Part shown: one piece after another, positions 2,738 to 29,721 of the stretch
Layout of the letters: each line of letters begins with the position of its first letter
Position numbering within the stretch: the first letter of the stretch is position 1
Assembly (NCBI GenBank): GCA_049472355.1
Contig: JBLIRP010000047.1
Location: 1 to 30,453 of the forward strand
DNA: 30,453 bases
Reading direction: 5' to 3'
Source: a bacterium
GTDB lineage: Bacteria; SZUA-182; DTGQ01; JAFGSM01
Notes under the pieces: generated by a model
Told to the model about the DNA's origin: nothing
What the model saw: the letters and a program-made list of their open reading frames with translations, nothing else
Database searches by the model: none
Translations under genes and position numbers: made by a program

Positions 2738-4705
2738 TCATCTACGCGATGAATGGCCGAAGATGACGTACGGGGACCCGGAAAATCCCCCAAAGAGGAG
2801 GGAGGGTGTTCCGAACCCGCTCAACGGATACCATTGCTGAAAACCGGAACCGAAGGGTGAAAGGGACAGGAAACCCGGCGAGCCGTACGTACCCGGTTGA
2901 TAGAACTGCCCGGGAAAGGCATATCCACTGTATGGTTGACTAAGGACCCGCCCGAATTGTGAAGGGTAGTAAAAATTGCTTCCGATAAAGGGCTGCTGCA
3001 GACCCTGGCTGAATTGCCCTCCGGGAAGGCCGCCCCCTGTATAGAATAATTGCTGAAGGTATGGGTAGAATGTGCTGGATAGGAGGCCGGGAGCGAAGCC
3101 GTAGGGGCCGGACCCACCTAAGAGGCTATAATACGGATACAGGGAAAATCCCGGTACATAGGGGTTGATATAGAACCCGCCAAACGGCACAGCAGTGCCT
3201 GTCCCGGAGGAGGAGGGATTTCCCTGCTGGGTGACGCTGGTATAATCCCACAGATGGTCATCCAGTCGATCAAGGGCCAGCCTCAGATTTATCAGGCCGT
3301 ATCCCAGTTTCTTTTCGCCGAACAAGGGGTCATCGATGACCGTGCTGGTTTCCCTGAGCAATTGTCTGAAGGTATGGACCGTAAAATTGGAGTCCCTCGA
3401 TCGGATCAATGCAGCCAACCCGCTTACAAAGGGGACCGACAGGGAGGTCCCTGAAATCGCTTTGATGTCGGTGGAATCGGGCACCAACGATACAATGGAT
3501 TCACCGGGGGCCACGACATCGATCCAGGTCCCGTATTGGGCGTTGTCACGCCGTACGATCTTATTCTGCGCATTCACCCTGATGGCCGTGGTCCCGATCA
3601 CGTTGTTGTATGCCGCAGGATAGGCCTCATTCTCTTCGTCTTCGTTGTCAGCAGGCGCCACGAATATGCAATTATAGGCCTCACATGCCTCGTCGATGGC
3701 GTCCTGCATGATCTCCGATCTGCTCGGGGTGGACATGCTGAGATTGATCACGTCTGCCCCCTTGTCTACCGCATATTCGACAGCCTGCGCAATCGTCCCG
3801 GTGGTCGAGGTCCCCTGGGTGAAGGGTTTTATTTTCCCGGTTTGTTCCTCCAGATGCTCCAAATAGCTCGTCTTGATGGGCAGAATCTTACAGCGGGGGG
3901 CAATACCGGGCACCCCGATCGCATTGTGATTGGCGGCAATGATCCCGGTGATGGGGGTGCCGTGCGGTACCACGTCCCTGATGTCATGCTCGGGAGGCAG
4001 GACGCCGCCGTCCAGTTCCGCAGAGTGGACATAGATATCAAAGCAGTAGGTTTTTCCGCTGTAAAGGTAGCATTCCTCGGAGGGAGCAGCCGGATTGATG
4101 GAGGCATCGGGGGGATATCGCTTGAACAGGGCCGGGCTCACAAACCTGTTTGCGAGGTCGGGATGGTCTACATCCACCCCGGAATCGATAACGGCAACGA
4201 TCACCTCCTCCGAACCCTTTTCCATATCCCAGGCCTCGTATGCCCCGATCAATGCATAGTAGTCGTAGGTCATCTGACCTATTGCCGGGTCAGGGGGAAC
4301 GGCCCTCGATCGGGTTATAAACTCCTTTTCCGCGGTAACAATGGCATCATGCTTCTCTAATAACCACGCTGTTATTGCATCCAGGTCAAGGCTCCCTTCG
4401 GTTACAAACCTGACCTTGTACCACCGGGCCAGTTGGCTTTCCGGGTCCCCCCTCGCAAACAGCTTTACAATCACCACCTCTGCATCGTATCCTGCAGACT
4501 GTAGATCCTCTGTCAGATCCTGTGCCAGGGATTCGATGAAATCGCCGGCCTTCCCTTCCATAACCATGCCCCTGGATATCTTTATGTTGAGCTCATTCGG
4601 CACAAATACCTGGGCACGACCAAGCCCAAAGGAGAATAGGAGGATTGACAGAACGATTACCGGCAAAATCCTCGTCTTTCTTGAAAGACCAAAATAACTA
4701 ACCAT
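2738..4705 (-). CDS. Secreted S8 (subtilisin-like) serine peptidase with a C-terminal Gly/Tyr/Pro/Phe-rich tail
   Basis: Catalytic motifs VAVIDSGVD, HGTPITG, GTSLSVPFVSG; oxyanion Asn in APADN; also GADVINLS and LGYGLIN. Signal peptide ends at GRA-Q. Start placed at ATG 4705 (GAGGA RBS) rather than 4762. Confidence 0.93.
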   Translation of the reverse strand: MVSYFGLSRKTRILPVIVLSILLFSFGLGRAQVFVPNELNIKISRGMVMEGKAGDFIESLAQDLTEDLQSAGYDAEVVIVKLFARGDPESQLARWYKVRFVTEGSLDLDAITAWLLEKHDAIVTAEKEFITRSRAVPPDPAIGQMTYDYYALIGAYEAWDMEKGSEEVIVAVIDSGVDVDHPDLANRFVSPALFKRYPPDASINPAAPSEECYLYSGKTYCFDIYVHSAELDGGVLPPEHDIRDVVPHGTPITGIIAANHNAIGVPGIAPRCKILPIKTSYLEHLEEQTGKIKPFTQGTSTTGTIAQAVEYAVDKGADVINLSMSTPSRSEIMQDAIDEACEAYNCIFVAPADNEDEENEAYPAAYNNVIGTTAIRVNAQNKIVRRDNAQYGTWIDVVAPGESIVSLVPDSTDIKAISGTSLSVPFVSGLAALIRSRDSNFTVHTFRQLLRETSTVIDDPLFGEKKLGYGLINLRLALDRLDDHLWDYTSVTQQGNPSSSGTGTAVPFGGFYINPYVPGFSLYPYYSLLGGSGPYGFAPGLLSSTFYPYLQQLFYTGGGLPGGQFSQGLQQPFIGSNFYYPSQFGRVLSQPYSGYAFPGQFYQPGTYGSPGFLSLSPFGSGFQQWYPLSGFGTPSLLFGGFSGSPYVIFGHSSRR

Positions 4706-5175
4706 TGCCGTCCTCTCATCCGTTACAAATTGATAGTGGTCCCTGATTAACCCCTCATACATAATTATACCATGATCATCGTCTTTGTGAACTATTCACC
4801 CGGAATCGTGTCCTGAAAATACCATATATCTGCATGAAAAATTTATTGTAATGTCTTGTGCTCACCTTAATGGTATGAGAACTTTTATGAAAGTTTTCAA
4901 TTAATCATTTGTTTTTACGAACTTTCATCCCTTTTTGTTATCGATAGACCATGGATGTTCAGTGGCAAATTCATATTCCCTCAGCCATGTTCTCTATCCG
5001 GTCACCTATCAGATCATGCATTCTGATTGTTATTTATCAGCATTACGGTCGCGACGGTCATTCCTCAAAAGGCAATTTGCAATTGGAATGTGTTGACGGT
5101 AATATAGACTCGTTTGTGGAAAACGGCTCTCATCATGGCATGGATCAATATTCACAGATCAGGAAGGGGCGTCAC

Positions 5176-5433
5176 ATGGATACGGTGAAGATAGGAAGGG
5201 ATTTCTTCGATACGATCAACAGCATGGAACGCGAGGAATTGATAAAACTCATCAATACGGAGGTGGGAGAGGAACTTACCCAGTACCTCCAAAACTACGC
5301 CCTCCGTGTGGCCTCTATCACCGATGATATGCAGGTGTTGAAGAGGAGCTTCTCTTCCATGCTTATCCTCGGTTACCTGCTCAGGGGGAAGGTGGAGTCT
5401 GCTCGACAAAACGATGCGCCACATACCAACTGA
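5176..5433 (+). CDS. Small hypothetical protein (85 aa, likely helical)
   Basis: AGGAAGGGG RBS before ATG 5176 (MDTVKIGRDFF...); protein-like composition; the upstream extension to 4951 looks non-coding. Confidence 0.7.
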   Translation: MDTVKIGRDFFDTINSMEREELIKLINTEVGEELTQYLQNYALRVASITDDMQVLKRSFSSMLILGYLLRGKVESARQNDAPHTN

Positions 5434-5550
5434 TACCCGATCATGCCGCATCCACAGTGCCCGGCGGCGTTTTTCCCCCGGGACTGATCCCCATGCCCCG
5501 GCCGAGGGCTCTACGACCGAAGCCATACGATAAGCGGTACTACATCCGGA

Positions 5551-8166
5551 CTACCGGATGCCGGGACCGGGGGCAAGGCAACCCTTCAAAAAATCTATCT
5601 CCTGCAGCCTCATTTCAACGGATTTCACCATCTCCTGCGGCATTCCCTCCTTCATAAGGACGAGGGCATCCCTGAGGGGGGTCCGTGACCGCTCCAATTC
5701 CCCCCGGTTGAACAGGATGGTTCCCAGTTCCAGGTGCAGGCGCGCATCCTTCGGTGAATCGGCGATGGCCTCTTCATAGGCATACAGGATCTCAGGATAA
5801 TCGGGATCGTGCTGCGGCCGTAAGGAAAGACCGACGCCGCATTCCTCGATCGCCTTACCAAGCATTTGTTTTCTCGATACCGTATCCGCCATCGAATTCC
5901 CCCGGGCATGTCCTGCATAGCATGCACTTAACAAGAAATGATAGGGTGCATAGAGTCCCACTATGGAACCATTGAGTTTTTCCAAAAGCCCTCGCGCCTT
6001 TTCATAATTTCCATATCCATAATAGGCCTCAGCAAGGAGGTACGAGGAGCTTATCGGATTGTCCACCCTCTCCAGTATCCTCGCAGCAGCCGTTGCCTCT
6101 TCAAACCGGCCGTTTCGCTCGTACAGGACGACGAGCCGGGTCACGACCCAGGGAAGCCCCGGCCGCATTTTGTTGAGAAGCTCGTACTGATGGAGGGCGC
6201 CCTCCGGTTCACCCTTTTCTTCGAGGCATCGCGCCAGGTAATACCGGGGCTGAGAAATGGGAAGGGTATATCCGTAGTATCCCTCCACCCCTTCATCAGC
6301 GAGGCCGCTGAATGTCCGGATCGCTTGATCATAGAGACCGGCTCGGAATAATAAATACCCAAGCATGAACCGCGCATAGGTATGATCCGGCTTGGTCCGG
6401 AGCACCTCCTCCCAGAACCGGATACCCTCCCGGCAGGCCCGTGAGGCGCCTCCGAGAAAACGGGCGGGGACCCGTGAGTCGTTGAATGGATTGAGGGCAA
6501 AGGCCACCTGAAATGCCGTGCGGGCACTTTTGCACTCCTGCCTGTTGAGCAGATCGAAGGCATTGCGCGCAGAGGTGCGGGCGTCACGGTCGACATCGAG
6601 CAGCAAGGTGAAATGCTCAACGGAGCCGGAGGGATGATTGACTCCCATAAAAATCAACACCAGCAGCAGTGCCCCTCCCAAAAACACCATCAGAGGGGAG
6701 ATATGCCGAAGTGTGTCCCTGACGCTTGTCGTGAGGGACTTCCCCTTGAACAGGGACATCGAGGATGATCCGAGGCTATAGATAAGCCCGACGAGATACA
6801 CCGCCCCTTCGTGGAGTGCATAGGCTGCAAAGGGGATCATAAAGGGAATTGCCGGAAGTCGCTGCCGGGAGGAGACAACAAAGAGGATGTTGAAAAAAAG
6901 GTAATTTCCCACCGCTGCGTACAAGAGCAGGTATCGCATGAATCCCCTGACACACAGGATCATTCCCAGAATCGCAAGGGGTATGACGAGGCCGAAGGTA
7001 AGCAAGGGAAATCGGCCGATCTCCCGGTCCAGGTAGAATACATTCCGAATGTCGTGGATTTCATAACGACTCCAGAAAAAGCGAAACTTCTGCAGAATGA
7101 GCCTCAGGTAATGGAGGGGAAACTCGGCGATAAAGTGCAGCGACCGTTCACACCAGAATGAGTTCGCCGGCAGCGGCGCATCCGAGGTCACCTCCGAGGT
7201 TACCACGGCCCCCTGAGCAAAATAGGGATAGAGATGAGGGGCAAAATCGGGCATCTGTTCGGTGTTGATCCCCGGCTCCCTTTCCACCTCCTTCAACAGA
7301 TAGGGATGGGCGCCGTAAAACCCTCGGGCCATGGGATTGTTTCCCTGGTAAAATACCTGCTCCGGACTCATTACGAATTGTAACCTGCCCTGGGAATGGT
7401 GGAAATTCCGGGCGAGAAGCGGGATCATAACGATGCAGAAGCCTGCCGCCACAAAGAAAAGGGCGTTGCCGATCCGAAGGGGCCTTTTAAATCCGATATA
7501 GATGATCCATACAACCACGCCGCACAACAAGATAGGGATGTTGGGACGGGTGGCCACCGACAATCCCAGGCCGATGCCGGGCAAAAGCCACAGCAGGGAG
7601 TTACGCCGGAAGACGGATTTCCCGGTGTATCCCTGGAGCGGGATGAGGCAGGGCCTCCCGTATTCAGAAAAGACACTTTTTTCGGCGCAATACAGGAGCA
7701 GATAGACGGAGAGCAGATTAAGGAAGATCACAACCGTCACCGGCGCCAAAACGTCTTCATACAGGATAAAGGGCTTATAGAACAGGGCGATCAGCCCGGC
7801 AATAACCGCAACGCGGGGATGAAAAAGGTAGGTGCAGATCATATAGATGAGGACGCAACCGAAGGCCCCTATGACCATCTGCAGGAGTATGTAATAGAAG
7901 TAGCTATTGGAGAGGACACGGTACAAAATGGTTATGAAACCGGTGTAGAGGGGGCTGAGGTTCAGAATCCTCGTGCCGATCGGGATGTCGGAAACGAGTT
8001 TATGCGCGACCCAGGGGTATTTGGAGAAGATGAGATAATTGTGTGACAATCGATCGAATAGCTGGGGGTGAAAGGTGGTGCTCACCAGAAAGAAACGCAC
8101 CAGAAACGCGCTTATGAAAATGGCAAACGCACACCAATCCCATGATCCTGAGGAAGGATGCCCCAT
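5551..8166 (-). CDS. Polytopic membrane glycosyltransferase (GT-C, PMT/ArnT-like) with C-terminal TPR repeats
   Basis: Many hydrophobic helices; SPLY, GLSVATRPN, FYQGNNP and SSRQRLP motifs; C-terminal TPR-like helices (ARFMLGYLLFRAGLYDQAIRTF, LHLELGTILFNRGELERS). Confidence 0.8.
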   Translation of the reverse strand: MGHPSSGSWDWCAFAIFISAFLVRFFLVSTTFHPQLFDRLSHNYLIFSKYPWVAHKLVSDIPIGTRILNLSPLYTGFITILYRVLSNSYFYYILLQMVIGAFGCVLIYMICTYLFHPRVAVIAGLIALFYKPFILYEDVLAPVTVVIFLNLLSVYLLLYCAEKSVFSEYGRPCLIPLQGYTGKSVFRRNSLLWLLPGIGLGLSVATRPNIPILLCGVVVWIIYIGFKRPLRIGNALFFVAAGFCIVMIPLLARNFHHSQGRLQFVMSPEQVFYQGNNPMARGFYGAHPYLLKEVEREPGINTEQMPDFAPHLYPYFAQGAVVTSEVTSDAPLPANSFWCERSLHFIAEFPLHYLRLILQKFRFFWSRYEIHDIRNVFYLDREIGRFPLLTFGLVIPLAILGMILCVRGFMRYLLLYAAVGNYLFFNILFVVSSRQRLPAIPFMIPFAAYALHEGAVYLVGLIYSLGSSSMSLFKGKSLTTSVRDTLRHISPLMVFLGGALLLVLIFMGVNHPSGSVEHFTLLLDVDRDARTSARNAFDLLNRQECKSARTAFQVAFALNPFNDSRVPARFLGGASRACREGIRFWEEVLRTKPDHTYARFMLGYLLFRAGLYDQAIRTFSGLADEGVEGYYGYTLPISQPRYYLARCLEEKGEPEGALHQYELLNKMRPGLPWVVTRLVVLYERNGRFEEATAAARILERVDNPISSSYLLAEAYYGYGNYEKARGLLEKLNGSIVGLYAPYHFLLSACYAGHARGNSMADTVSRKQMLGKAIEECGVGLSLRPQHDPDYPEILYAYEEAIADSPKDARLHLELGTILFNRGELERSRTPLRDALVLMKEGMPQEMVKSVEMRLQEIDFLKGCLAPGPGIR

Positions 8167-8252
8167 GTCGTCAAACGTGCGTATGGAAGACTCCTCTCCT
8201 ATCCTTTTGATTGATCAAGCGATTCCATCTCAAGAAACCATGCGAAGAACCC

Positions 8253-8281
8253 TTGACGCCGTTTGGCGCACAAGGCATAGT
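8253..8281 (+). promoter_or_regulatory. Candidate sigma70 promoter for the 8579 gene
   Basis: TTGACG-17 nt-CATAGT in the divergent intergenic region. Confidence 0.35.
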
Positions 8282-8578
8282 GTACCGTAACCACGCAAGC
8301 AGTATAGGAGAACCCTGCCTGCGGCCGGACACATGTGCCTTGAATAGAATATGTGTATATATGGTTACATCACAAATGTCAATGCTCAAACCCACACCCA
8401 AAACTCTGTCAGGCTGAGCGTAGCGAAGCACTATGCTCCCCTTTGCATTCACCAAACGGGCCCCCCTATCCGAGTAAAACCATAGTCCTCCATCATGATG
8501 CAGCGACAAAATAAAAAACGAGAATAAGGAAATCCCATTTTCAATAGTCTAATATATGTTAGAAAGGGGGGATACGCT

Positions 8579-9076
8579 ATGAACCTTAAAAAGTCGTTGT
8601 GCGTACTCGTTGTAGTGTGTGCAGTATTGATGTTTATCGTTTCTGTTGCTCCTGTTCGATCCGAGGTTGATACGGAGGATGACGAGACCAGAACCGCTCA
8701 ATTCCTTCCATACGGGACGTACGGATTATACGGCTCACCCTATGCAAGCCCCTATGGCCTGCAGTATCCGCCGTATGCCGCCTATGGGGGACTATACCCT
8801 TATGGGGGGATTCTTCCCTATGGGGGCATTCTTCCCTATGCGTCCTATGGGTCCTATGGATTGGGAATGAGTCCCTTCGGGGCACAAAACATCTATTACC
8901 CTATACCCCTTCAAGGGACGGGCTATGTATTTCAGGCTCCGTATCTACAAATAGCACCGTACCTTGGGGCGACGACATTCTGGCAGAACCAGTTTCCGAA
9001 TGCGGATTGGAGCAATGTACTTGCGGCACAGTTTCTTGGTCTCATCGATCTTTCCGGAATGCCTCGTCTATTCTAA
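8579..9076 (+). CDS. Secreted Tyr/Gly/Pro-rich low-complexity protein of unknown function
   Basis: AAAGGGGG RBS; signal peptide MNLKKSLCVLVVV...; short acidic stretch EVDTEDDE; then PYG/YG-rich repeats (PYGGIL twice); own terminator. Confidence 0.85.
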   Translation: MNLKKSLCVLVVVCAVLMFIVSVAPVRSEVDTEDDETRTAQFLPYGTYGLYGSPYASPYGLQYPPYAAYGGLYPYGGILPYGGILPYASYGSYGLGMSPFGAQNIYYPIPLQGTGYVFQAPYLQIAPYLGATTFWQNQFPNADWSNVLAAQFLGLIDLSGMPRLF

Positions 9077-9083
9077 AATCCGG

Positions 9084-9129
9084 AAACCCGTCAAGAATGC
9101 AGGCACCTGTCATTCTTGACGGGTTTTTT
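9084..9129 (+). terminator. Intrinsic terminator
   Basis: AAACCCGTCAAGAATG...CATTCTTGACGGGTTT inverted repeat running into a T tract, just after stop 9076. Confidence 0.9.
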
Positions 9130-9172
9130 CTTTCTGCAGCCGTATCCTGGCCGGACGCGGCCCTTGCGATCA

Positions 9173-9622
9173 TTATTCCTTCGAGTGACAATCATTGCAG
9201 ATGGTCGGACCTGAAGGATTCCCCTCGGTCTTCGTTTGCCTGTGACAATCAACGCAGCTCCTGCTCACCGTCTCCGCCTTGGCATGGAATGCGGCATAAA
9301 AGGAGTCGGTACCGCTTTTCGTTGCGGTGTTTGCATGGCACCCCTCCATCGAGCAGTTCCCAACGGTCAACGTCTCGAAGACCTTGTGATGGCATACGGT
9401 GCAGTCATGAGAGCTGTGTGTCTGGTGAGGAAAGGCCGCCTGCTCCTTTGTCATGTTTGTACCTTCAGGGACCGTGACCAGCACCTTTTCCGGGATCTTC
9501 ACCACACGGGCACCGGGTTCCTGGGCGCCGCCCGGATCGGGCGCCAATGCAATAAATAGCATGGCGATAAAGGTGATGATCATCCATACCATGACACCAT
9601 ATCCGAGTCCCTTTCTCATCAT
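9173..9622 (-). CDS. Tetraheme cytochrome c3 family (class III) protein, exported
   Basis: Heme sites CTVCHH, CSMEGCH (CX4CH), CVDCH, CNDCH; distal His motifs FPHQTH and YAAFH; N-terminal signal/membrane anchor; AAGGGGG RBS before ATG 9622. Confidence 0.92.
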   Translation of the reverse strand: MMRKGLGYGVMVWMIITFIAMLFIALAPDPGGAQEPGARVVKIPEKVLVTVPEGTNMTKEQAAFPHQTHSSHDCTVCHHKVFETLTVGNCSMEGCHANTATKSGTDSFYAAFHAKAETVSRSCVDCHRQTKTEGNPSGPTICNDCHSKE

Positions 9623-9772
9623 TGACATCCCCCTTCTGTTCACTGAGTTAGAGGTTTTCACCCCGCTTACCTTCCTTGAGAGAGATTTTCCCGCCCGCCC
9701 CTTCTGTGACGGCCCTTGCAGAAAGATATTCGCAGGCATATGTTACATGGTCTGCACATATGATTATATGGA

Positions 9773-9789
9773 TTCAAAAATTGTGCCAA
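9773..9789 (-). promoter_or_regulatory. Candidate sigma54 promoter for cytochrome c3
   Basis: Minus strand TTGGCAC-AATTT-TTGAA; correct -24/-12 spacing, with GA instead of GC at -12. Confidence 0.55.
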
Positions 9790-9980
9790 AACAAGGGGAA
9801 ATGCCGCCTTCTCCCCTGCGCTCAACCTGACTCCGTTGCCTACCATCTCGAGATCCGCTTTTTCCACACTTCATTCATAAGCGCACCTTCCTCCGTTCCC
9901 CATTTTCGATGCAACCGCCGGCCAGGTCTCGCCTGTTTTCAAGGACTACAACCGTTCAACCGTTCCTCTATGAAAATATT

Positions 9981-10102
9981 GTAACCGTTCACCGCATTTC
10001 CATATTCTCATGCAGGAGCGGAAGGCGACGTGGCAATCTTAAAACGACATTGCTTCGCTTTGCTCGCAATGACTTGCAATCTGAAATAGTGTGAACGGTC
10101 AC
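9981..10102. mobile_element. MITE-like non-autonomous element, 122 bp
   Basis: 12-bp terminal inverted repeats GTAACCGTTCAC / GTGAACGGTCAC (one mismatch), flanked by identical AAAATATT at 9973-9980 and 10103-10110; no transposase. Confidence 0.8.
10007..10073. repeat. Degenerate REP-like palindromic unit nested in the MITE
   Basis: GGAGCGGAAGGCGACGTGGCAATCT...ATTGCTTCGCTTTGCTCGCAATGAC resembles GTCATTGCGAG...CTCGCAATGAC-type intergenic palindromes; left arm decayed. Confidence 0.6.
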
Positions 10103-10388
10103 AAAATATTAACACATAGGCGCCTGTTCGGCCATAGGAGGCGCCGTGCTGTGTTTTTATCCCGGGTTGAATCATCTGGACGGATATAGGGCTGAGCAAA
10201 GGTTTATTCGCAAGGTCGAATAGAGCAGGTGAACGATTTGCGTGTGATCGAAAATCGAACCATACACCCTGTCCCTCTCTATTGCAAGGGAAACCCGGTT
10301 GCATATATGATTGAAGGGTGATGCAGGTATTGCAGCGATCCGCCGCAATCCGCATAAACGATGAATGGCCTCAGAGAAAGGAGAACCG

Positions 10389-15882: not shown

Positions 15883-16202
15883 GTATGACCTCCCGATATA
15901 TGTCTCTGGTATATTTTTCGGAAAAAATGACCGAGATGGCCGGGCGATGATCGTTATCCGTATCAAGCGATGTTATCCGGCATTATTGCAGAGCAAGGTG
16001 ATGAAACAACGATGTTTAACCGGATCGACAAAAAGAAAGGGATACGATTATAATTTAATTAAGTCATGAAGAAAAACGCGGATGTTCGATGGTGAAAATC
16101 CTTCGCGACCAGACAAAATGTGCCGTGTAACAGCCGGAAAGCCAGTGCCTTAATCCTTGTCAACGTTCTCAGCAGGGGGAAGCGGCAGCCGTCAGGACAT
16201 TA

Positions 16203-17438
16203 CTATAGCGGCATGGACCGCAAGGCCGCGATGCGATCGAGGACCGGCGGATGGGTATAGCGCAGCACCACGTTCAATGGATGAGGGGTGAGATTTCCGA
16301 GGTTGGAAACCGCAAGGTTTTTCAGGGCCGAAACGATTCCCTCTATGGAACCGGTGGTTTGTGCAGCGAACGTATCCGCCTCCAACTCATGTTTGCGGGA
16401 AATATGGTTCATCAGAACTGAAATTACAAACTCCACCGGAAGATAGAGAAATGCAAAAAAGACGAACCCGGCATACACGGATGTCCGCTGCACCCCGAAT
16501 GCCTGGAAGAGCCTCAGGTTATCCATAAAAATGGAGAGCAGGTACAAAAATACGCCGGTGTGGAGGATGGCCCACACCATCCCCTTGACCACGTGCCGTT
16601 TCTTGTAGTGGCCCACCTCGTGCGCGATAACGGCAACGATCTCCTCGGGGGAATGCCGGTTGAGCAGGGTGTCGAAGAGCGCAATCCTCTTTTTATAGAG
16701 CCCGCTGAAATAGGCGTTGGAGTGCGCCGACCGCCGGGATCCGTCCATCACGCTGATCTCCTTGAGAGGAAAACGGACCCGTGCGGCGTACCGTTCAATG
16801 TCCCCCTTGAGCCCGCCCTCTTCAAGCGGGATAAAATCGTTGAACAGGGGTGCGATGACCATTGTATACAGGGGTTGGGCAATAAGTATGAAAATGGACA
16901 CAAAGGCCCATACATAAAGCCATGCAAGGGAGCCGGCCCGTTCAAAGATGAACTGCATTCCTCCCAGGATGATTGAACCCAGGATGCATACGAGGAGGTA
17001 CATCTTGGCCTTGTCGATAAAGAAGGTCCTGAGGGTCATGGTGTTGAATCCGAACCGTTCTTCGATCACGAAATGATTGTAGAGAGAGAACGGGATAGAG
17101 AAGACCTCGTAGATGAGAAAGAGGATCCCGAAGAAGATGAGACCTGCGATCGTAGTCGGGACGTCAAGCCCCCGGACGAACCGGTCCACGTAACTGAATC
17201 CGCCCGCCAGGATGAAGGTCAGCACAAAAACGAGGCTGAATGCCGATGAAATGCAGTCGAATTGCGCCTTGCTTCTGGTATATTGCTGGGACCTGGCATA
17301 GCGCTCGGGCTCATACATGCCCTTGAATTCATCGGGCAGGGTCATATCAAGGGATCTGATGCACAGAAAATCCCCGATGCACTCAACGACAAACCCGGCA
17401 ACAAGGGCAGCCAGAATGATTATGAGATATATGTTCAT
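16203..17438 (-). CDS. M48 family Ste24-like membrane zinc endopeptidase
   Basis: HEVGH zinc motif, DGSRRSAHSNAYFSG, IEERFGFN, SRKHELEADTFA, YTHPPVLDRI; multiple TM helices. Confidence 0.96.
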   Translation of the reverse strand: MNIYLIIILAALVAGFVVECIGDFLCIRSLDMTLPDEFKGMYEPERYARSQQYTRSKAQFDCISSAFSLVFVLTFILAGGFSYVDRFVRGLDVPTTIAGLIFFGILFLIYEVFSIPFSLYNHFVIEERFGFNTMTLRTFFIDKAKMYLLVCILGSIILGGMQFIFERAGSLAWLYVWAFVSIFILIAQPLYTMVIAPLFNDFIPLEEGGLKGDIERYAARVRFPLKEISVMDGSRRSAHSNAYFSGLYKKRIALFDTLLNRHSPEEIVAVIAHEVGHYKKRHVVKGMVWAILHTGVFLYLLSIFMDNLRLFQAFGVQRTSVYAGFVFFAFLYLPVEFVISVLMNHISRKHELEADTFAAQTTGSIEGIVSALKNLAVSNLGNLTPHPLNVVLRYTHPPVLDRIAALRSMPL

Positions 17439-17584
17439 TGGGTAACCGCGAAACCGTTTCGTCTTTCCTGTATGACGGCATATCGATTCCGTTTATTATG
17501 ATAGCATAGTCCTCCCCTGTTGTCTCCCCTTGCCGCATCGAGGACAACCGTTTACATCGTACACTGCCGGAAAATCGGCCTTTT

Positions 17585-17654
17585 CACCGCAAAGGACACG
17601 GAGTCTACAAAAAAGATCAACAGTCGCCCTCTCTTCTTTGTGAATCCTGCGGTG
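17585..17654. repeat. Decayed intergenic palindromic element
   Basis: CACCGCAAAGGACACGGAG ... CTTTGTGAATCCTGCGGTG imperfect inverted arms. Confidence 0.4.
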
Positions 17655-17827
17655 TATTTCAAAATCGCGCATTATGGCCGTATGAAGCATGATGAACTGC
17701 GCCATGGACTGAAGGCAGGCGTGTACGCAAGGCGCATACACAAAAAATCGTAACGATAGGGTGCCTTTTGGGGTCTATGAGGGTACTTTACGGCCAGGGG
17801 GGATGATAGCCTGCTATAGTGCGGAAT

Positions 17828-17857
17828 TTGCCTTTCCTGCATTGTTTGACCTATAAT
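17828..17857 (+). promoter_or_regulatory. Candidate sigma70 promoter for the Kazal gene
   Basis: TTGCCT-18 nt-TATAAT. Confidence 0.4.
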
Positions 17858-18033
17858 AGCACTGTTGTTCTCTCACAACACATATCCCTTGCCCCCCCGC
17901 AACAATTACCAGCATCCGGATTGTTTATCAAGGAGGTTCCATCGCATACACTAAGTCATGCATGTCTTATTGATCTCTTTTATTCGTATCTGTCATCACA
18001 TCCGAGCATTTCACCGCATAAGGAGGATACACC

Positions 18034-20625
18034 ATGAAAACGGCAGCCATACGCACGCGTATCGTCATCCTTGGTCTCATCATCGTTTCGTTTCTTTTTC
18101 AGGCCAATGCAGCGCCTGCCGGCACCCATGGAATCGGGCATTCCTGCTCCAGCACCATGGAATGCTCGCCCGGGGCTTACTGCAAAAAGGACCCGGGAGA
18201 CTGCCAGGGCGAAGGTGAATGCGAGCGACGGCCCTTTTACTGTCCCCAGGTATGGGCACCGGTATGCGGATGCGACGGCAAGACCTATCCCAACGAATGT
18301 GAAGCGTCCCGCAAGGGCATCAATGTGCAGTCACAGGGTGCATGCCAGCCCGGACAGACCCAGTGCACGGACAACGGCGACTGTGCATTGAATGACTATT
18401 GCCGGAAACAGATCGGGGTATGCGAAGCAGGCGCCGGGACCTGCGCGCCCAGGCCGGAGGTCTGTGCCCAGATATGGGACCCGGTATGCGGATGCGACGG
18501 CAAGACCTATCCCAACGAATGCACGGCTGCGACCTACGGGATCAATGTGCGATCACAAGGTGCATGCCAGCCGGGGCAGACCCAGTGTACGAACAACAGC
18601 GGTTGCCAGCCGAATGAATACTGCCGGAAGCAAACCGGGGTATGCGAGGCAGGCGCCGGGACCTGCGCGCCCAGGCCGGAGGTCTGTGCCCAGGTATGGG
18701 ACCCGGTATGCGGATGCGATGGGCAGACCTATCCCAATGCCTGCGAGGCGGCAACCCGGGGCATCAATCTCGCCACCGAATCGGCCTGCACCCCGGGGCA
18801 GATACCCTGTACCACCAACAGCGCCTGTCCGCCCGACTCCTATTGTGACAAGCCGATCGGCCAGTGTAATGCGGCCGGGACCTGCGCGCCCAGGCCGGAG
18901 GTCTGTGCACAGATATGGGACCCGGTGTGCGGATGCGACGGCACAACCTATCCCAATGAGTGCACGGCTGCCTCAAACGGCGTCAGCGTCTATCAGGAAG
19001 GCGAATGCGAGCCGGGAATCACCCCATGTACGGGCAACAGCCAATGCCCATCCGGATCGTTCTGCAAAAAGGCGGCCGGGGATTGCACGGGAAGCGGGGA
19101 ATGCGCCCCCGCACCCCAGACCTGCCCGGAAATCTACGCACCGGTATGCGGGTGCGACGGCAAAACCTACTCGAGCGAATGCGTGGCAGCCGGAAACGGC
19201 ATCAACGTGGACTATGCAGGGGAATGCACCCCCGGAGGCATAGAATGCACCGCAGATGCCGAATGTGGAACGGACGAATACTGTCAAAAGGCCACCGGGG
19301 ATTGTAACGGGAACGGGGTGTGCGCTGTGGTTCCGGAGGGATGCCCCGATGTATGGGCCCCGGTGTGCGGGTGCGACGGCAAGACCTATCCCAATGACTG
19401 CGCCGCCGCCCTGGAGGGGATTAATGTCAATTACACCGGCGAATGCCAGGGAACCGGTCCCCAGTGTTCGGACAGCAGCATTTGCCCTGCAGGGACCACC
19501 TGCCAGAAGAGCCCTGGACAGTGCTCTGGGATGGGGGTCTGCGCACCACCGCCGACGTCCTGCCCTGACGTATGGGCTCCGGTGTGCAGTTGCGACGGCA
19601 AGACCTATCCCAGCGGATGTGTTGCTACCTCCCAGGGGAAAAACATCGCCTATACCGGGGTGTGTCAGGCAAGCGACGTCACCTGTTCCGATAACAGTGC
19701 ATGCCCTGCAGGTGAGTATTGCCGGAAGGACTCCGGGGAGTGTAGTACTGCACAGGGGGCATGCGCCCCCCGTCCCGAGACGTGCCCGGACATATGGGAA
19801 CCGGTCTGCGGATGCGACGGTCAGACCTATCCCAACTCGTGCGAGGCGGCAGCCCAGGGGGTCAATGTGGACTATACCGGCCAATGCCCCGGAGGAAGCC
19901 TTTTTTGCTCCACCAACAACGATTGCTCACCCTTTGCCTATTGTCAGAAGGACCCGGGGAAGTGCACCGGCCTGGGCACGTGTGCGCCGCGTCCCGAGTT
20001 CTGCATCCAGGTCTATGACCCCGTGTGCGGGTGCGACGGAAAGACCTATTCCAATGAATGCGTGGCAGCTTCAAGCGGTGTGAGCGTCGACTATGAAGGC
20101 GCCTGCAAATCCACGCCCTCCCCCAGCCCCCAGCCCTCCCCCTTCCCGTTTCCCGGTTCCCTCTTCGGCGGGTACCCCATCGGGGGATTCCCCGGCGGGT
20201 TCCCTGGCGGAGGGTACTATGGCGGGGGATATCCCTATGGCGGCTCCTACGGGGGAGGATTCCCCTACGGCGGCATCATCGGGGGCCTTATCGGCGGATT
20301 CCCGTACGGCGGCATCGGCGGGGGCCTCATCGGCGGATTCCCGTACGGGGGCTATTCATTCGGAGGATTTGCAGGAAGCAGGTATCCGTACGGTGGTCTT
20401 TCCGGCACCACCTACCCCTATGGAGGGTTTTCCGGGACCACATTCCCGTCCGGGGGATTTTCGGGGACCACCTACCCCTACGGAGGATTTTCCGGAACCA
20501 CTTACCCCTACGGCGGGTTCACGGGTGGCTCCTTCCCCTTGGGCGGCTACTTCAGTGGGGGCTTCTTCGGATTCAACAGGGGATTCACCTCCTATCCGTT
20601 CAGCTACCCCTACTCGCAGCAATAA
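18034..20625 (+). CDS. Secreted multi-Kazal (nine units) Cys-rich protein with Gly/Tyr/Pro/Phe-rich C-terminal tail
   Basis: AAGGAGG RBS; signal peptide; nine C-x6-VC[G/S]CDG-x-TY-x3-C-x-A Kazal cores, each preceded by a five-Cys module; PSPSPQP linker and GGFPYGG/GGFSGTTYPY tail. Confidence 0.93.
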   Translation: MKTAAIRTRIVILGLIIVSFLFQANAAPAGTHGIGHSCSSTMECSPGAYCKKDPGDCQGEGECERRPFYCPQVWAPVCGCDGKTYPNECEASRKGINVQSQGACQPGQTQCTDNGDCALNDYCRKQIGVCEAGAGTCAPRPEVCAQIWDPVCGCDGKTYPNECTAATYGINVRSQGACQPGQTQCTNNSGCQPNEYCRKQTGVCEAGAGTCAPRPEVCAQVWDPVCGCDGQTYPNACEAATRGINLATESACTPGQIPCTTNSACPPDSYCDKPIGQCNAAGTCAPRPEVCAQIWDPVCGCDGTTYPNECTAASNGVSVYQEGECEPGITPCTGNSQCPSGSFCKKAAGDCTGSGECAPAPQTCPEIYAPVCGCDGKTYSSECVAAGNGINVDYAGECTPGGIECTADAECGTDEYCQKATGDCNGNGVCAVVPEGCPDVWAPVCGCDGKTYPNDCAAALEGINVNYTGECQGTGPQCSDSSICPAGTTCQKSPGQCSGMGVCAPPPTSCPDVWAPVCSCDGKTYPSGCVATSQGKNIAYTGVCQASDVTCSDNSACPAGEYCRKDSGECSTAQGACAPRPETCPDIWEPVCGCDGQTYPNSCEAAAQGVNVDYTGQCPGGSLFCSTNNDCSPFAYCQKDPGKCTGLGTCAPRPEFCIQVYDPVCGCDGKTYSNECVAASSGVSVDYEGACKSTPSPSPQPSPFPFPGSLFGGYPIGGFPGGFPGGGYYGGGYPYGGSYGGGFPYGGIIGGLIGGFPYGGIGGGLIGGFPYGGYSFGGFAGSRYPYGGLSGTTYPYGGFSGTTFPSGGFSGTTYPYGGFSGTTYPYGGFTGGSFPLGGYFSGGFFGFNRGFTSYPFSYPYSQQ
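18139..20106 (+). repeat. Intragenic tandem repeat array, nine units of about 220 bp
   Basis: GCCGGGACCTGCGCGCCCAGGCCGGAGGTCTGTGC recurs exactly in units 2, 3 and 4 (spacing 222 and 219 nt); TGCGA[C/T]GG recurs in all units. Confidence 0.9.
20380..20530 (+). repeat. 30-bp coding tandem repeat (GGFSGTTYPY-like)
   Basis: YPYGGLSGTT-YPYGGFSGTT-FPSGGFSGTT-YPYGGFSGTT-YPYGGFTGGS. Confidence 0.85.
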
Positions 20626-20689
20626 GTAGTGTGACCTTCAATGGATTTTTAGGGAAAATCGCTATAATTTAGATCATTGGCTGATTTTG

Positions 20690-20757
20690 GGCGAGGTAAC
20701 ATGGCGAGGTAACATGGTTGACGCCTTGTACAATGTGATGCATACTGTGATGTATAA
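20690..20757 (+). promoter_or_regulatory. Promoter/operator region of the toxin-antitoxin pair
   Basis: Exact tandem GGCGAGGTAACAT x2 (20690-20715); TTGACG-17 nt-CATACT (20718-20746); direct repeats TGTGATGCATA and TGTGATGTATA over the -10. Confidence 0.55.
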
Positions 20758-20786
20758 GGTATGAATTTTTGAAAGGAGACCGCTAC

Positions 20787-21071
20787 ATGGCACAGATGAT
20801 CCGGAAGCAGGTTTATATTGAACAAAGACAGGATGCAATACTAAAAAGGCTCGCCCATGTAAGAGGCGCGACCGAAGCCGAAATCATTCGAAAGGCAATC
20901 CAAAGAGAGGCCAATGCGGTTGTTGAGGGAGAAGGAAGTCCTGATCCCCAAGCATGGGGAGCTGTGCGCGACTTCATACTCACACTCATTGCGAAAGGAA
21001 GCGCAGCCGGGGGAAGAAAATGGAAGCGGCAGGATATCTATGAGGAAAGATTGAAACGAGATGGCCGTTAA
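20787..21071 (+). CDS. CopG/ribbon-helix-helix antitoxin (VapB-like)
   Basis: RKQVYI...ILKRLA...TEAEIIRKAI RHH pattern, C-terminal RKWKRQDIYEER; AAAGGAG RBS; overlaps the PIN gene start. Confidence 0.85.
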   Translation: MAQMIRKQVYIEQRQDAILKRLAHVRGATEAEIIRKAIQREANAVVEGEGSPDPQAWGAVRDFILTLIAKGSAAGGRKWKRQDIYEERLKRDGR

Positions 21072-21494
21072 ATATCTTATTGACACCAATGTGCTCGTCC
21101 ACGCCATGACCGATCGGAACCAGAAAAGCAGCGAAAGGCATTTGAAGTCATGGAGCGGCTGTATACCCTTGGTTCTGCAGCACTGACAACACAAATTCTC
21201 GCTGAGTTCTTTACCATTGTCACTCGCAAATTGAGTAATCCTTTAACGATAGAGGAATCCACGCGTCAGGTTGAGCTGTTGGCCCGTGTGTGGCCGGTTT
21301 TCGATGTGACAGCCTTCACCGTCATTGAGGCAATTCGAGGAGTCCAATCCCACCAGATGCCCTACTGGGACTCCCAAATATGGGCATCTGCGCCATTAAA
21401 TCAGATACCGATTATCTTGTCCGAAGATTTTAGTGCCGGAAGGGTGATCGAGGGAGTTCGCTTCATAAATCCCTTTATCCAGGAAATTGAATAA
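21061..21494 (+). pseudogene. vapC: PIN-domain toxin (VapC-like) with a 1-nt frameshift near 21105
   Basis: ATG 21061 gives MAVKYLIDTNVLVHA; homology continues in the -1 frame as DRSEPEKQRKA...TQILAEFF...YWDSQIWA...ILSEDF...GVRFINPF. Confidence 0.85.
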
Positions 21495-21498
21495 GTAT

Positions 21499-21760
21499 TT
21501 ATAGGAAATAGTCCTTCTCCAGGCTCTCGTTGCACCACTTTTGAATGACCTCCAGGATCGGATCGGGATTGAAATCCTCGTATCTTCCCAGGAGACATAT
21601 ATTCCCCGTCACCGGCTTGAAAAACATGTCAATGTAGGGGATGATGATGTGCGGAGGAAGTGCCTCCAGGAAAACGCATTTCTGCGCGCCGAAGTAATGC
21701 CCCAGGATCAATGCCGCATCGTTGAAATCCCCGCCGTTTGACAGGATTGTTTCCTTATTC
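21499..21760 (-). pseudogene. Probable internal fragment of an agmatine/peptidyl-arginine deiminase family gene
   Basis: ILGHYFGAQKCVFLEALP...PYIDMFFKPV...CLLGRY recalls the YFG...HIDMF..F...LVG.Y segment of that family; the catalytic His position reads Tyr; neither terminus of the enzyme is present. Confidence 0.4.
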
Positions 21761-22213
21761 TCCCCCTCAATGGATTGATCATGATGCGAGCTGCATGACA
21801 GGAGTCGTGCATGACATAGTGGCATTGTCAGCAGGTGCGTGGACGACGAGGAAGCGGAAACATGTGATACATCACTGCAACGCCTTCACAACAGTATAAT
21901 AATTTTATATCGGGGCGCATCCCGCGCTCGATCATCATTGTAGAGACCTCGGTATGCGAGGCTCCGGTCCCGTATGGCTGTAATCCGGAGATGGGGCACA
22001 AGGACGCATGGGATTGCCGGGGGCGCCGGCCGTGCCGGATACCCCCTTACAACAAGGGCACGCATGTACAGGCGTGTTTCTCTGAGCGACAGGGTGCTTG
22101 GCCGCAAACGTACTGGCCTTGCGTATTCATGGCACACGATTCTGCGCACGCCGATAGCGCCCTGGAACCCGAGCGTCACCCATTGCAGCATGGTCCGTTT
22201 CCCCTTCAGGGGG

Positions 22214-22237
22214 GGAAGTGGCCTGAAGGCCACTTCC
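22214..22237 (-). terminator. Perfect 10-bp hairpin 40 nt downstream of the 22278 stop
   Basis: GGAAGTGGCC-TGAA-GGCCACTTCC; no clear U tract, so terminator or stabilising hairpin. Confidence 0.5.
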
Positions 22238-22277
22238 TTATACGGTCTCATGCCATACGTTGTCTCGGATTGCGTAA

Positions 22278-22841
22278 CTACAGAAGCGGCAGTCCCCACA
22301 CCTCAGCAGGGGTCAGGAAGCTCGAGAACGAGTAATTGTAAATGGACGGCGGATAGAGAATGGCGTACGTGGTATTGGCTGCGTTGAAAAAGAGCCCGAA
22401 GTCATCCAATTCCGTGGGAGGCAACAGTTCGAAACCTGCGGGCAGGGTAGTAGGCACGGGCGCACCGGTTACAGGATCACTGAGATACGAGGGAGGCCAT
22501 GGATTGAACCCATAGTACGGTGCAAAATAGGTAAGGCCCCCGCCCAGGACAGAGGGAATATTATACAGGAGCCACGGGAAGCTCTGCGCCGGGTCCCATA
22601 CCAGTGCAGGTTGTACCGGGAGTATTGTGTTATTGGAGATCTGTGTCAGCAAGGGCGTGGCCAGCCCCGTACCCGGATCCACCGGAGAGAGCGCAGGCGA
22701 CCACAAAGGCCACAGGAGATTGTATGGTGGCAGCGCTTGCCAATATTGAGCCCGAGCCATTGATGCATTGACGAAGATAAAGGCGGCAAGCAGTACCAGA
22801 CCCGTAATTGCCAGCCACACAAACCTTTTTTCCTTCATCAT
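22278..22841 (-). CDS. Secreted Pro/Leu/aromatic-rich protein of unknown function
   Basis: GAGGAAAGGG RBS; signal peptide ending ARA-Q; mature sequence QYWQALPPYNLLWPLWSPALSP..., few charged residues. Confidence 0.88.
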   Translation of the reverse strand: MMKEKRFVWLAITGLVLLAAFIFVNASMARAQYWQALPPYNLLWPLWSPALSPVDPGTGLATPLLTQISNNTILPVQPALVWDPAQSFPWLLYNIPSVLGGGLTYFAPYYGFNPWPPSYLSDPVTGAPVPTTLPAGFELLPPTELDDFGLFFNAANTTYAILYPPSIYNYSFSSFLTPAEVWGLPLL

Positions 22842-22957
22842 ACCCTTTCCTCCTCATAGCACGAAGGACAGTCCAAAAAAACACTGGACGAATGAATGAT
22901 AAAGACACGCTACATGTATGCACCCCCTTCCCTTCTCTGGTCTCTTGTATGAAACAG

Positions 22958-22974
22958 AGCATGAATGGTGCCAA
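22958..22974 (-). promoter_or_regulatory. Candidate sigma54 promoter for the 22841 gene
   Basis: Minus strand TTGGCAC-CATTC-ATGCT, exact GG-N10-GC spacing. Confidence 0.7.
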
Positions 22975-23101
22975 TGGTATTTGATTGATCCTGGGCCTCC
23001 GTGAACATTGGAAGGGTACGTCCACCCTGTGATTTCCAGACAGTGAATATATGGTGCATGGTTACGAAGGGGGGATGGTGCGGATAGAAATTACGAATGA
23101 T

Positions 23102-24214
23102 TCATAATTTTTTCCCCGTTCCCAGCCATCCCTTTTCAAGGGGATCTGGGGGCACCCGTCCCTGCCGCTCTAGCCGGTAGCAGCAAAATGCGTTCTCTGC
23201 ATCGGAGCCGCTGAGGGCGAGGGGAAGATTCGGGCATCCACCCCTGCATTGGAGGTTATGGGGGCAGGTGCGGCAGAATCCCTGGAGCATTGCCGGATGA
23301 AACAGGCGGGTACGCCAAAAGCGCCCGTGGTCCTGCCAGATCGCATGCAGGGACTCCATTCTGAGATCCCCCACCATCCTTGAATCGGGAAGGGAAAGAC
23401 AGGGTTTTATCTGACCGGTGCTGCATATGCCCAGGGTGGCGATTCCTGCCGCGCACCCGGACCATACGGGCAGTTCGGTATACCCGGTAAGCCGCCCCGA
23501 AAAATACCCGAAGCAGTGACTCCCGGCAACCGGAAGGTCATCCACCCCATACGCAGCCCGGCTTTTCGAAATGAACTCGGCAACCTGGTAGACCTGCTCG
23601 GGGCTCAGGTTCCATTCATCCGACCATCGCCTGCCGTGCGCAGCCACTGCCTGCAGTTGCCACGTGATATTCCGTCCGGCCAGGAGATCCCGGAGCTCCA
23701 CAAGCTCGCCGAGATTCAGAACGGAGACGGAGGTAATGGCCCCTGTTTCAAAACCTGCATCCCTCAGCAACCACAGGGCGTTAAGCGCACGCTGGTGGGA
23801 GCCCGCTCGTCCCCGAATCCGATCGTGAATCTTCGCCGTTGCCCCGTCCAGGCTGACCCCGATCCGGCTCAACCGGCTGAGGTCCTGCAATCGCCGTATC
23901 ACCGGCGGTTCAATGAGCCATCCATTGGTGATGATCACCAGGTCCATACCAAGATCGCAGATAGCCGAGGCGACGTCGAACCATCCAGGGGCGAGAAGGG
24001 GTTCGCCGCCCAGGATACATACCTCCCGGCAGCCCAGGGAGGCCAACTGCTCCATGACCCCGATCCACTCGGCGGTGTCGAGCTCGCCCGGACGTGGATC
24101 TCCTGCGGTGGAACCGCAATGAAGGCAACGCAGGTTGCATCGCAGGGTAAGCTCTACGTTCACGAACCAAAGGGGAGGGATAGTATTCTGCATTATACCC
24201 GTTTTCTCACACAT
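23102..24214 (-). CDS. Radical SAM enzyme with SPASM domain, probable peptide/protein maturase
   Basis: CNLRCLHC SAM-cluster motif, GGEPLL, ITNG, VSLDG..HDRIRG; SPASM WSGCAAG..GQIKPC..CRTC..CRGGC..NAFC. Confidence 0.93.
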   Translation of the reverse strand: MCEKTGIMQNTIPPLWFVNVELTLRCNLRCLHCGSTAGDPRPGELDTAEWIGVMEQLASLGCREVCILGGEPLLAPGWFDVASAICDLGMDLVIITNGWLIEPPVIRRLQDLSRLSRIGVSLDGATAKIHDRIRGRAGSHQRALNALWLLRDAGFETGAITSVSVLNLGELVELRDLLAGRNITWQLQAVAAHGRRWSDEWNLSPEQVYQVAEFISKSRAAYGVDDLPVAGSHCFGYFSGRLTGYTELPVWSGCAAGIATLGICSTGQIKPCLSLPDSRMVGDLRMESLHAIWQDHGRFWRTRLFHPAMLQGFCRTCPHNLQCRGGCPNLPLALSGSDAENAFCCYRLERQGRVPPDPLEKGWLGTGKKL

Positions 24215-24292
24215 TCACCGGCTGCACCCTGTGAAAAACCTGCCGGCAGTCTCCTGTGATACGGGATTGCGCCTGTACAAGGGCATGCACAC

Positions 24293-24760
24293 CTATGCCT
24301 TCAGATGGGACCGTTTTACCAGTCCGTAGAGGGTGCCGGCCGGATACGGACTTGACGATCCCGATCCCGGGTAGATCCCCGGGTAGTTCCCTTGATACCC
24401 CCACGGGGAGCTCCACGGGGAGGACCATAGATTTCCCCAGGAACCCCACGGTGACCCCCATGCAAAGGAGGGATACGACAGGAATGACGAGGCACCCGAC
24501 CATGGGGAATAGAACGAACCGAAGGGAGACCATGGCGTATAGGACCACGGCGTGTAGTATGATGAATAGGAAGACCAGGGAGAGAAGAAGCCCCCATACG
24601 AGTATGGGAATGAAAAGAACTGGGAAGGCGCCCTGGTCTGGTATTGAATGCTTGAGCCGATACCCTGCTCGAGGGCATCCAACCCCGGAAATGCATTCAA
24701 AGGAAACAGAGATTGTGTGCTTTTTCTTCGTTCCAATCTTTTAAAATAGATGGAAGGCAT
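24293..24760 (-). CDS. Ser/Pro/Trp/Tyr/Gly-rich repeat peptide, candidate precursor for the adjacent radical SAM enzyme
   Basis: AAGGA RBS; charged N-terminal ~40 aa then a charge-free region with ten Trp, seven in [S/T]PW; no hydrophobic signal peptide; 78 nt upstream of the rSAM gene on the same strand. Confidence 0.8.
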   Translation of the reverse strand: MPSIYFKRLERRKSTQSLFPLNAFPGLDALEQGIGSSIQYQTRAPSQFFSFPYSYGGFFSPWSSYSSYYTPWSYTPWSPFGSFYSPWSGASSFLSYPSFAWGSPWGSWGNLWSSPWSSPWGYQGNYPGIYPGSGSSSPYPAGTLYGLVKRSHLKA

Positions 24761-29620: not shown

Positions 29621-29721
29621 AAGAAGTAGCTTTATTGCACCCATAAAACTATGATACCACATCCAAATTGCTACTATACTCTCCGATGCCTTCACATGTG
29701 CTCACATTGCAACTATTAGTA

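Follow-up and report, generated by a model that had tools for sequence, protein, structure and literature searches.

Charge-poor, aromatic-rich segments in the exported proteins of one bacterial order: a predicted self-assembling surface material and a separate precursor gene

In one order of bacteria, protein segments that are nearly free of charge and rich in glycine, proline and aromatic residues are confined to exported proteins, with their composition kept. The stretch of DNA analysed here, hereafter the window, is the whole of contig JBLIRP010000047.1 (C91; 30,453 nucleotides; assembly GCA_049472355.1; lineage SZUA-182; DTGQ01; JAFGSM01) from a 3.49-Mb genome with 54% guanine plus cytosine (GC) that is 87.5% complete. 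Five of its proteins carry such a segment: an S8 subtilase, a protein of Kazal-type inhibitor repeats, two small exported proteins (8579 and 22278, named after their first positions) and 24293, encoded beside the radical S-adenosylmethionine (radical SAM) enzyme 23102. An original prediction, made from the window's sequence, read all five as one composition-encoded module that gathers cargo and scaffold proteins into a sheath, coat or matrix. The reading preferred here, to which we give a probability of roughly 0.55, is narrower: four of the five segments would belong to an order-wide set of exported proteins that form a non-covalent, self-assembling envelope or surface material retaining tagged enzymes.

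Segments in exported proteins of a single order

Gene calling with a hexamer model gave 3317 genes, signal peptides were assigned by visual inspection and a hydropathy rule, and a segment was defined as a 60-residue stretch with at most 3 charged residues (DEKR), at least 11 aromatic residues (FWY), at least 12 G+P and at most 21 LIVMA. A first round of this filter was passed by 123 genes, and 109 passed a strict count that excluded the signal region and admitted only genes of at least 100 aa with an intact 5' end, so that carriers make up some 4% of the called genes. Strict passers are distributed very unevenly: 97 of 636 exported proteins, 9 of 276 and 2 of 156 proteins in the membrane classes, and a single one of 1391 cytoplasmic proteins, an enrichment of about 200-fold in the exported set and in line with the link to secretion that had been proposed. 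Most carriers (69/109) are small or consist mostly of segment, and 95 of the 101 sequence clusters formed by the segments are singletons. A lipobox-like motif occurs in 1 of the 109 carriers compared with 33 of 539 other exported proteins, and no further membrane helix was found. After predicted cleavage, glutamine comes first in 57 of 109 carriers against 86 of 539 other exported proteins, and either Gln or Tyr in 83 of the carriers. Two ideas about this terminus were rejected: pyroglutamate capping, as the PF05096 cyclase was not found in the genome, and a cut site of the form R-x-A-[AQ] as a rule for the strict set, in which it is not enriched (5/61 versus 31/261) even if 8579 has one.

The trait is equally uneven between lineages. 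The collection holds 20 genomes of the class, of which 13 belong to the window's order and 7 to other orders. The filter gave 0 segments behind signal peptides in 361 kb of DNA taken from 20 genomes outside the class (53% GC; about 14 expected at the rate of the window genome) and 0 in 508 kb of the 7 other-order genomes (about 19 expected); across these 869 kb of control DNA one open reading frame (ORF), lacking a signal peptide, passed the filter. By comparison, 255 kb from genomes of the same order at 44% GC gave 4 cases. The DNA pattern for YGG[LMIF]YG is present at 17–217 copies per genome in 13/13 genomes of the order, at 0 in the 7 genomes of other orders and at 0–3 in 41 others. The trait tracks lineage, not GC; an artefact of GC or chance, the outcome that could have undone the original prediction, is ruled out by these control genomes together with the contrast between exported and cytoplasmic proteins.

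Selection and turnover of the segments

Measured against G001, a genome of the same genus, the ratio of nonsynonymous to synonymous substitution rates (dN/dS) is 0.24 in the S8 tail and 0.20 in the S8 domain, 0.16 in the Kazal tail and 0.12 in the Kazal domain, and 0.17 in mature 8579, with 0.09 for a neighbouring M48 peptidase. Charge arises in only 2 of the 60 substitutions in the S8 tail, Kazal tail and 8579, against an expectation of about 22%. Aromatic residues in 114 segments adjoin one another 301 times against 587 in shuffles, gaps of 3–5 being favoured, and 181 copies of GLYG are encoded by 72 different codon strings. The tails are under purifying selection, avoid charge and space their aromatic residues evenly, and neutral slippage is ruled out by dN/dS and codon diversity.

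Beyond the genus, sequence gives way faster than composition. The S8 tail is 37% identical to that of G004 (shuffled 30%) compared with 72% for the domain, its composition being kept; Kazal tails reach identities of 45% and 49% (shuffled 36–37%) against 58% and 57% for the domains, and in G004 and G005 are built of other repeat units at 1% DEKR. The repeat unit thus varies between genomes while charge in the tails stays constant at 1–3%, and this turnover at constant composition is what most strongly supports a function encoded in composition. Of the tag originally proposed, selection at the level of composition is seen on the two cargo tails, S8 and Kazal.

Three kinds of segment

The coordinates and composition first given for the five segments are right (105–160 residues, 0–5% charged and 17–30% aromatic; Table 1), as is a signal-peptide-like N-terminus in four of the five, 24293 being the one without. 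Their supposed common nature fared less well. No alignment joins the five (best E 2.4–3.7 in composition-corrected BLAST), and one alignable module across them is ruled out by BLAST and by family profile searches, but alignable families do exist for 22278 and for the C-terminal half of 8579. Likewise, the linker ahead of the Kazal tail is Ser/Pro as described, and that of the S8 tail is Ser/Thr/Gly. The five segments are of three kinds: composition-only tails (S8 and Kazal), alignable families (8579 and 22278), and a precursor of the type that yields peptides made on ribosomes and modified after translation (RiPPs; 24293). A single composition-only module is not supported. No match in Pfam or NCBIfam on the five proteins indicates LPXTG, PEP-CTERM, SLH, T9SS or lipoprotein sorting, which, with the scarcity of lipobox-like motifs noted above, agrees with the earlier statement that the first four of these signals do not match.

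Table 1. Features of the window, with lengths and compositions of the segments
Feature	Position	Strand	Segment length and composition	Remarks
Alpha-2-macroglobulin, 5'-truncated	ORF 1..2631	+		PF00207 at aa 179
Macroglobulin charge-poor Gly/aromatic stretch at bait-region position	220..447	+	76 aa; DEKR 7%, FWY 13%, G 22%	Just upstream of PF00207; below strict filter
S8 subtilase	2738..4708	-		Signal peptide, pro-region, intact Asp/His/Ser motifs; PF00082 E 3.7e-39
S8 C-terminal tail	2741..3190	-	150 aa; DEKR 2%, FWY 25%, G 19%, P 12%	Composition-only
Membrane protein between S8 gene and 8579	5551..8166	-		Weak PMT_2/PF13231 (GT-C) match, TPR repeats
8579, small exported protein	8579..9076	+	Mature part 124 aa; DEKR 2%, FWY 23%, G 15%, P 12%	Signal peptide, short acidic stretch, then two blocks
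8579 Gly/Tyr block	8699-8869	+
8579 conserved 44-residue motif (C-terminal half)	8870..9001	+		Beta-hairpin and helix predicted
Class III cytochrome c	9173..9739	-		Ordinary
Exported protein with nine Kazal-type inhibitor repeats	18034..20625	+		PF00050, 9 stretches
Kazal C-terminal tail	20140..20622	+	160 aa; DEKR 1%, FWY 28%, G 36%, P 11%	Composition-only, behind Ser/Pro linker
22278, exported, Pro-rich, charge-poor, order-specific family member	22278..22841	-	Mature part 156 aa; DEKR 5%, FWY 17%, G 6%, P 17%	Weakest fit; fold confidently predicted
Radical SAM/SPASM enzyme 23102	23102..24214	-		Related to tyramine-splicing maturases
24293, RiPP-type precursor	24293..24760	-	Core 105 aa; DEKR 0%, FWY 30%, G 13%, P 14%, Ser 26%	No signal peptide; Ser-Pro-Trp-rich core
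24293 conserved YG site	24317-24337	-
24293 conserved leader	24701-24760	-
PAS sigma-54 activator, then NifB/NifX-type protein	28235..30415	+		Ordinary

Small exported families

Neither 8579 nor 22278 has a Pfam or NCBIfam match. The 44-residue motif of 8579, itself without a match in Pfam, occurs in 12 of the 13 genomes of the order and in 0 of 138 others, and a Gly/Tyr block precedes it in 28 of 30 loci, that is, in all loci with enough upstream sequence; its structural model is of modest confidence (pLDDT 66, pTM 0.35). The family of 22278 is larger, with 34 genes in the window genome and matches in 13/13 genomes of the order and 0/28 others, and on a world scale is small, at 104 of 1.84 billion clusters. 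Its predicted model is confident (pLDDT 96, pTM 0.90); against the PDB there was no Foldseek match at E 0.001 and a best VIA Z of 2.4, which decides neither for a new nor for a known fold, and a top score of 0.79 in the ESM Atlas is uninformative. In 4 of 12 long homologues scanned the domain is fused to beta-helix/PKD, LVIVD, FG-GAP or MAM domains, and a 4574-residue protein (G000:C72:21176-34900) contains two copies. The idea that 22278 is firmly tied to the radical SAM pair was considered and rejected, its closest homologues in G004 and G005 having no adjoining pair. In metatranscriptome contigs from 4 runs 22278 is without cover; intergenic pieces are covered too, so these contigs give no ranking of expression.

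Tailed cargo

The S8 subtilase probably starts at Met19 (position 4708), judging by the start of its orthologue and a Shine-Dalgarno-like stretch; orthologues are found in G001 and G004. Segments are common on its relatives, being present in 5 of 7 complete S8 genes compared with 36 of 314 exported proteins longer than 320 aa, paralogues not being independent of one another. Pfam matches among 40 long carriers include four further subtilases, two macroglobulins, two multihaem cytochromes, an M4 peptidase, a transglutaminase-like protein, a deacetylase, and propeller or Ig proteins; 20 of the 40 scanned had no Pfam match. One of the cytochromes (G000:C92:11987-21760) is an exported protein of 3257 residues with Ig-like domains and a segment at residues 919-1039, and is possible electron-transfer cargo.

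In the macroglobulin at the edge of the window, the stretch just before PF00207 occupies what we take to be the bait region. A charge-poor Gly/aromatic stretch stands at this position in all three macroglobulins found in the genome, whereas the one readable control bait, from another order, has 25% DEKR. The thioester motif of the window protein reads Cys-Phe-Thr-Gln, the usual motif being Cys-x-Glu-Gln, and ahead of the bait there is presumably a pseudopilin-like stretch.

A predicted surface material and its alternatives

On the preferred reading, carriers would leave the cytoplasm through Sec without a lipid anchor and pass on to the cell surface. The small proteins (Gly/Tyr blocks, the 8579 motif and the folded 22278 domain) would form the bulk of the material, their uncharged stretches binding one another after export through aromatic stickers set among Gly/Pro/Ser spacers, and the tail-bearing enzymes and inhibitors would be guests held in the coat or matrix. 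Subtilases, Kazal proteins and macroglobulins could then provide built-in control of proteolysis and turnover, with the macroglobulin bait imitating coat material. As the predicted location we favour the outer surface above the periplasm. Where cells have an outer membrane, a signal peptide by itself leads to the periplasm; four full secretin genes in the genome indicate such a membrane, and with it an available route across.

It must be acknowledged that a number of points weigh against this reading. Firstly, the coat or matrix is predicted from sequence, the filter thresholds were chosen after the five segments were known, and simple rules served to call genes and signal peptides. Secondly, clustering of carrier genes is modest (25 of 97 against 15 expected, with a permutation maximum of 27; n=500), and no shared docking motif was found, two family profiles being weak or silent for the tails of the S8 and Kazal proteins (best E 0.0075, three targets). 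Thirdly, the individual proteins fit unevenly: 22278 is a poor match in composition, and only 13 of its 34 family genes are among the strict hits; the S8 orthologue is present in only 3 of the 13 genomes; the terminal tail is missing from short Kazal proteins of G007 and G010 and from long multi-domain Kazal proteins; and in two S8 paralogues the segment lies ahead of the pro-domain and is predicted to be lost on maturation. The pro-domain of subtilases is removed as they mature, so a segment placed ahead of it and cut off with it could position the zymogen, not retain the mature enzyme.

Among other explanations, the tails may be adsorption handles, by which each protein binds membranes, envelope polymers or hydrophobic particles singly and no self-assembled material is formed. 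Uncharged, aromatic-rich tails do sit on hydrolases, the lack of a shared docking motif would be natural, and among 49 carriers with a segment running to the C-terminus the last residue is Trp or Phe in 18 (4.6 expected) and in no case Gly (about 10 expected). We nevertheless regard this as unlikely, since small or segment-dominated proteins make up most of the carriers, the segment is present in inhibitors and at macroglobulin baits as well, and conserved ordered blocks adjoin the repeats. Less probable again is that there is no common system, the segments being glycosylation acceptors, spacers or tolerated repeat expansions that resemble one another through a lineage-wide bias. The division of the five into three kinds, the predominance of singleton clusters and the GT-C/TPR-like membrane protein at 5551..8166 could all be accommodated in this way; purifying selection equal to that on the domains, charge avoidance, even aromatic spacing, diverged codons and the near absence of segments from cytoplasmic proteins of the same genome speak against it.

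A further alternative, which we hold to be somewhat more improbable still, is a periplasmic material around a storage inclusion or inner compartment, the periplasm being where a signal peptide alone ends, as with sulfur globule proteins (SGPs). According to the part of PMC10386293 available, the SgpA/B/C proteins of Allochromatium vinosum are small, hydrophobic, keratin-like and Sec-exported to the periplasm, where they form a protein envelope, and the carriers share this type, being small and hydrophobic with rule-called Sec signal peptides. Yet the same part gives one to six sgp genes per organism as against more than 100 here, where the segment is also fused to enzymes and the 22278 domain to adhesin-type domains. 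PF17228 (SGP) has 0 matches in the genome, none in 14 control genomes and none on window proteins, the control being silent, and neither dsrA over cut-off nor a flavocytochrome c sulfide dehydrogenase domain (PF09242) was found in the 87.5%-complete genome, Sqr and Sox lying outside the search.

A precursor beside a splicease-like enzyme

It is very probable, from its leader and its neighbourhood, that 24293 is a cytoplasmic precursor separate from the exported set, and not the stand-alone scaffold it was first taken for. Its leader, which has no Pfam or NCBIfam family match, occurs in only two ORFs of the window genome, both adjoining radical SAM genes, the second lying behind another enzyme related to 23102. 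The leader family comprises 26 ORFs of more than 60 aa in 12 genomes of the order, plus one in G001, once a false match from another order, an ORF of 23 residues and a partial duplicate had been removed. None of the 26 has a hydrophobic N-terminus, whereas 21 pass the composition filter, which is why 24293 had been grouped with the exported segments. Between 24293 and its relatives in G007 and G001 the leader and one C-terminal YG site are common and the core between them cannot be aligned.

Spliceases remove tyramine at XYG sites and leave protease-inhibiting ketoamides (in the available parts of PMC11414181 and PMC9811515), and splice tags contain LYGL and YGVV (likewise PMC10533398). In the systems PlpX/PlpY/PlpA and RhaX/RhaA, a radical SAM/SPASM enzyme lies beside a leader-bearing precursor, again by the available parts of the sources (PMC11414181, PMC11626197, PMC10533398, PMC9811515, PMC10849128), and 24293 with 23102 shares with these spliceotide systems the adjacent precursor and XYG sites flanked by Leu/Val/Ile. 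A precursor beside an annotated nif11 maturase of Nostoc also has LYGL near its end. The best NCBIfam models for 23102 are TIGR04103 (178 of 725 bits) and TIGR03913 (180 of 592), with the next family at 132, and among named plasmid hits GDL and nif11 maturases come first, at 31–36% identity. In a tree retaining 35 of 64 rows, long-branch and redundant rows having been dropped, it falls in a 28-row clade with named maturases as against 7 other radical SAM rows (support 95/87). No solved close relative was found, the best PDB match being SkfB (E 1.5e-17). Counting against the assignment, the enzyme is below both family cut-offs and is not sister to named maturases. The pair also differs from the spliceotide systems in that the enzyme forms a subclade of its own, the leader is without a family match, cores run to about 80–240 residues, mostly uncharged, and the same leader also stands beside other radical SAM enzymes. 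On balance, excision of tyramine at the conserved YG site of 24293 by the adjacent enzyme is the likely chemistry. A metatranscriptome contig of 1604 bases, about 93% identical, covers the precursor and most of the enzyme gene, library DNA being possible; it comes from a related strain, and an in-frame insertion of 12 bases gives it one core repeat more than 24293.

Related gene clusters occur in several forms. A second and more complete cluster of the window genome stands at G000:C83:5417-10080 (L163), where a YydH/daptide-like membrane protease (below cut-off) and an SPFH-radical SAM fusion accompany a splicease-like enzyme and a precursor with four YG sites and a dN/dS of 0.04, and similar clusters are found in G001, G002, G004, G005, G006, G009, G010 and G011. 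Relatives of 24293 (L206:5161-8213 in G001:C55; L175 and L176 in G007) sit upstream of a gene fusing methyltransferase-like and radical SAM parts, which the window lacks, and the window pair looks like a reduced operon. At L102, L105 and L126 the same leader heads precursors with Cys-containing motifs, flanked by a pair of radical SAM genes that fall outside the splicease-like clade; these precursors possibly undergo other chemistry. In a Thermoplasmatales archaeon (L002:4675-4890, 7179-7433), three related radical SAM genes in a row accompany short precursors of YKAG/YGT repeats.

A last alternative, that the exported YG repeats are themselves splicease-like substrates or are tyrosine-cross-linked, would suit the excess of YG over GY in segments (844 versus 458), the presence of splicease-like enzymes in 10/13 genomes of the order and 0/7 of other orders, and a 22278-family gene near the window-type precursor cluster in G000, G001 and G010, but is very improbable given that the flanks differ ([LY]YG[VI] at 7 of 1743 Tyr in exported segments versus 55 of 355 in precursors), that the leader is so restricted and that no oxidative cross-linking enzyme was found. 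The dityrosine cross-linking originally suggested is likewise unsupported, because four oxidase or peroxidase families (PF00141, PF07731 and PF03150, for catalase-peroxidase, multicopper oxidase and di-haem peroxidase, and the haem-copper oxidase PF00115) were not found in the 87.5%-complete genome while controls matched, DyP and tyrosinase lying outside the search.

Comparison with known materials

Chaplins, curli and hydrophobins are secreted, self-assembling, hydrophobic surface proteins with several paralogues; they are, however, defined sequence families, and 8579 and 22278 match none in Pfam or NCBIfam. Squid suckerins, by the available part of PMC9999432, consist of blocks with Gly/Tyr/Leu modules of GGY and GGL and self-assemble into fibrils. 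Gly/Tyr/Leu modules are abundant in the segments too, with GGL at 267 against 95 and GLYG at 207 against 17 in shuffled sequence. The ordered block of suckerins is rich in Ala/Thr/His in that account, whereas the segments have 0.4% His and 5.2% Ala and the conserved block of 8579 is unlike this module. Suckerins are animal proteins for which the same part of the source describes no enzyme cargo, and their likeness to the segments is one of composition. The segment system would thus work like SGPs or suckerins by analogy, and not by any shown membership in either. A literature search found no paper on the proteins of this lineage; a 2022 survey of spliceases in Chem may cover the precursor type.

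Implications

Bacteria are known to display surface proteins by means of sequence motifs and special-purpose enzymes, and the self-assembling surface proteins known so far come as few paralogues of one family. Marker motifs or families in all 13 genomes of this order point to display by composition alone, as in animal protein materials and condensates; what is unusual is the scale and the composition-based tagging of cargo, the assembly itself being predicted. If the preferred reading is true, the envelope would be of a new design and would supply a natural collection of self-assembling tags with which to immobilise enzymes and, with 22278, one fold without a PDB match. The precursor family, for its part, would offer large multi-site substrates for splicease-like enzymes, which are in use for protein labelling. 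Tentatively, and as a possibility we think doubtful when all its parts are taken together, the order may build its surface from a squid-tooth-like, composition-addressed material with interchangeable tails on proteases, inhibitors and multihaem cytochromes, in which bait mimicry would trap attacking proteases and ketoamide-armed spliced precursors would either inhibit proteases or cross-link the coat without oxygen.

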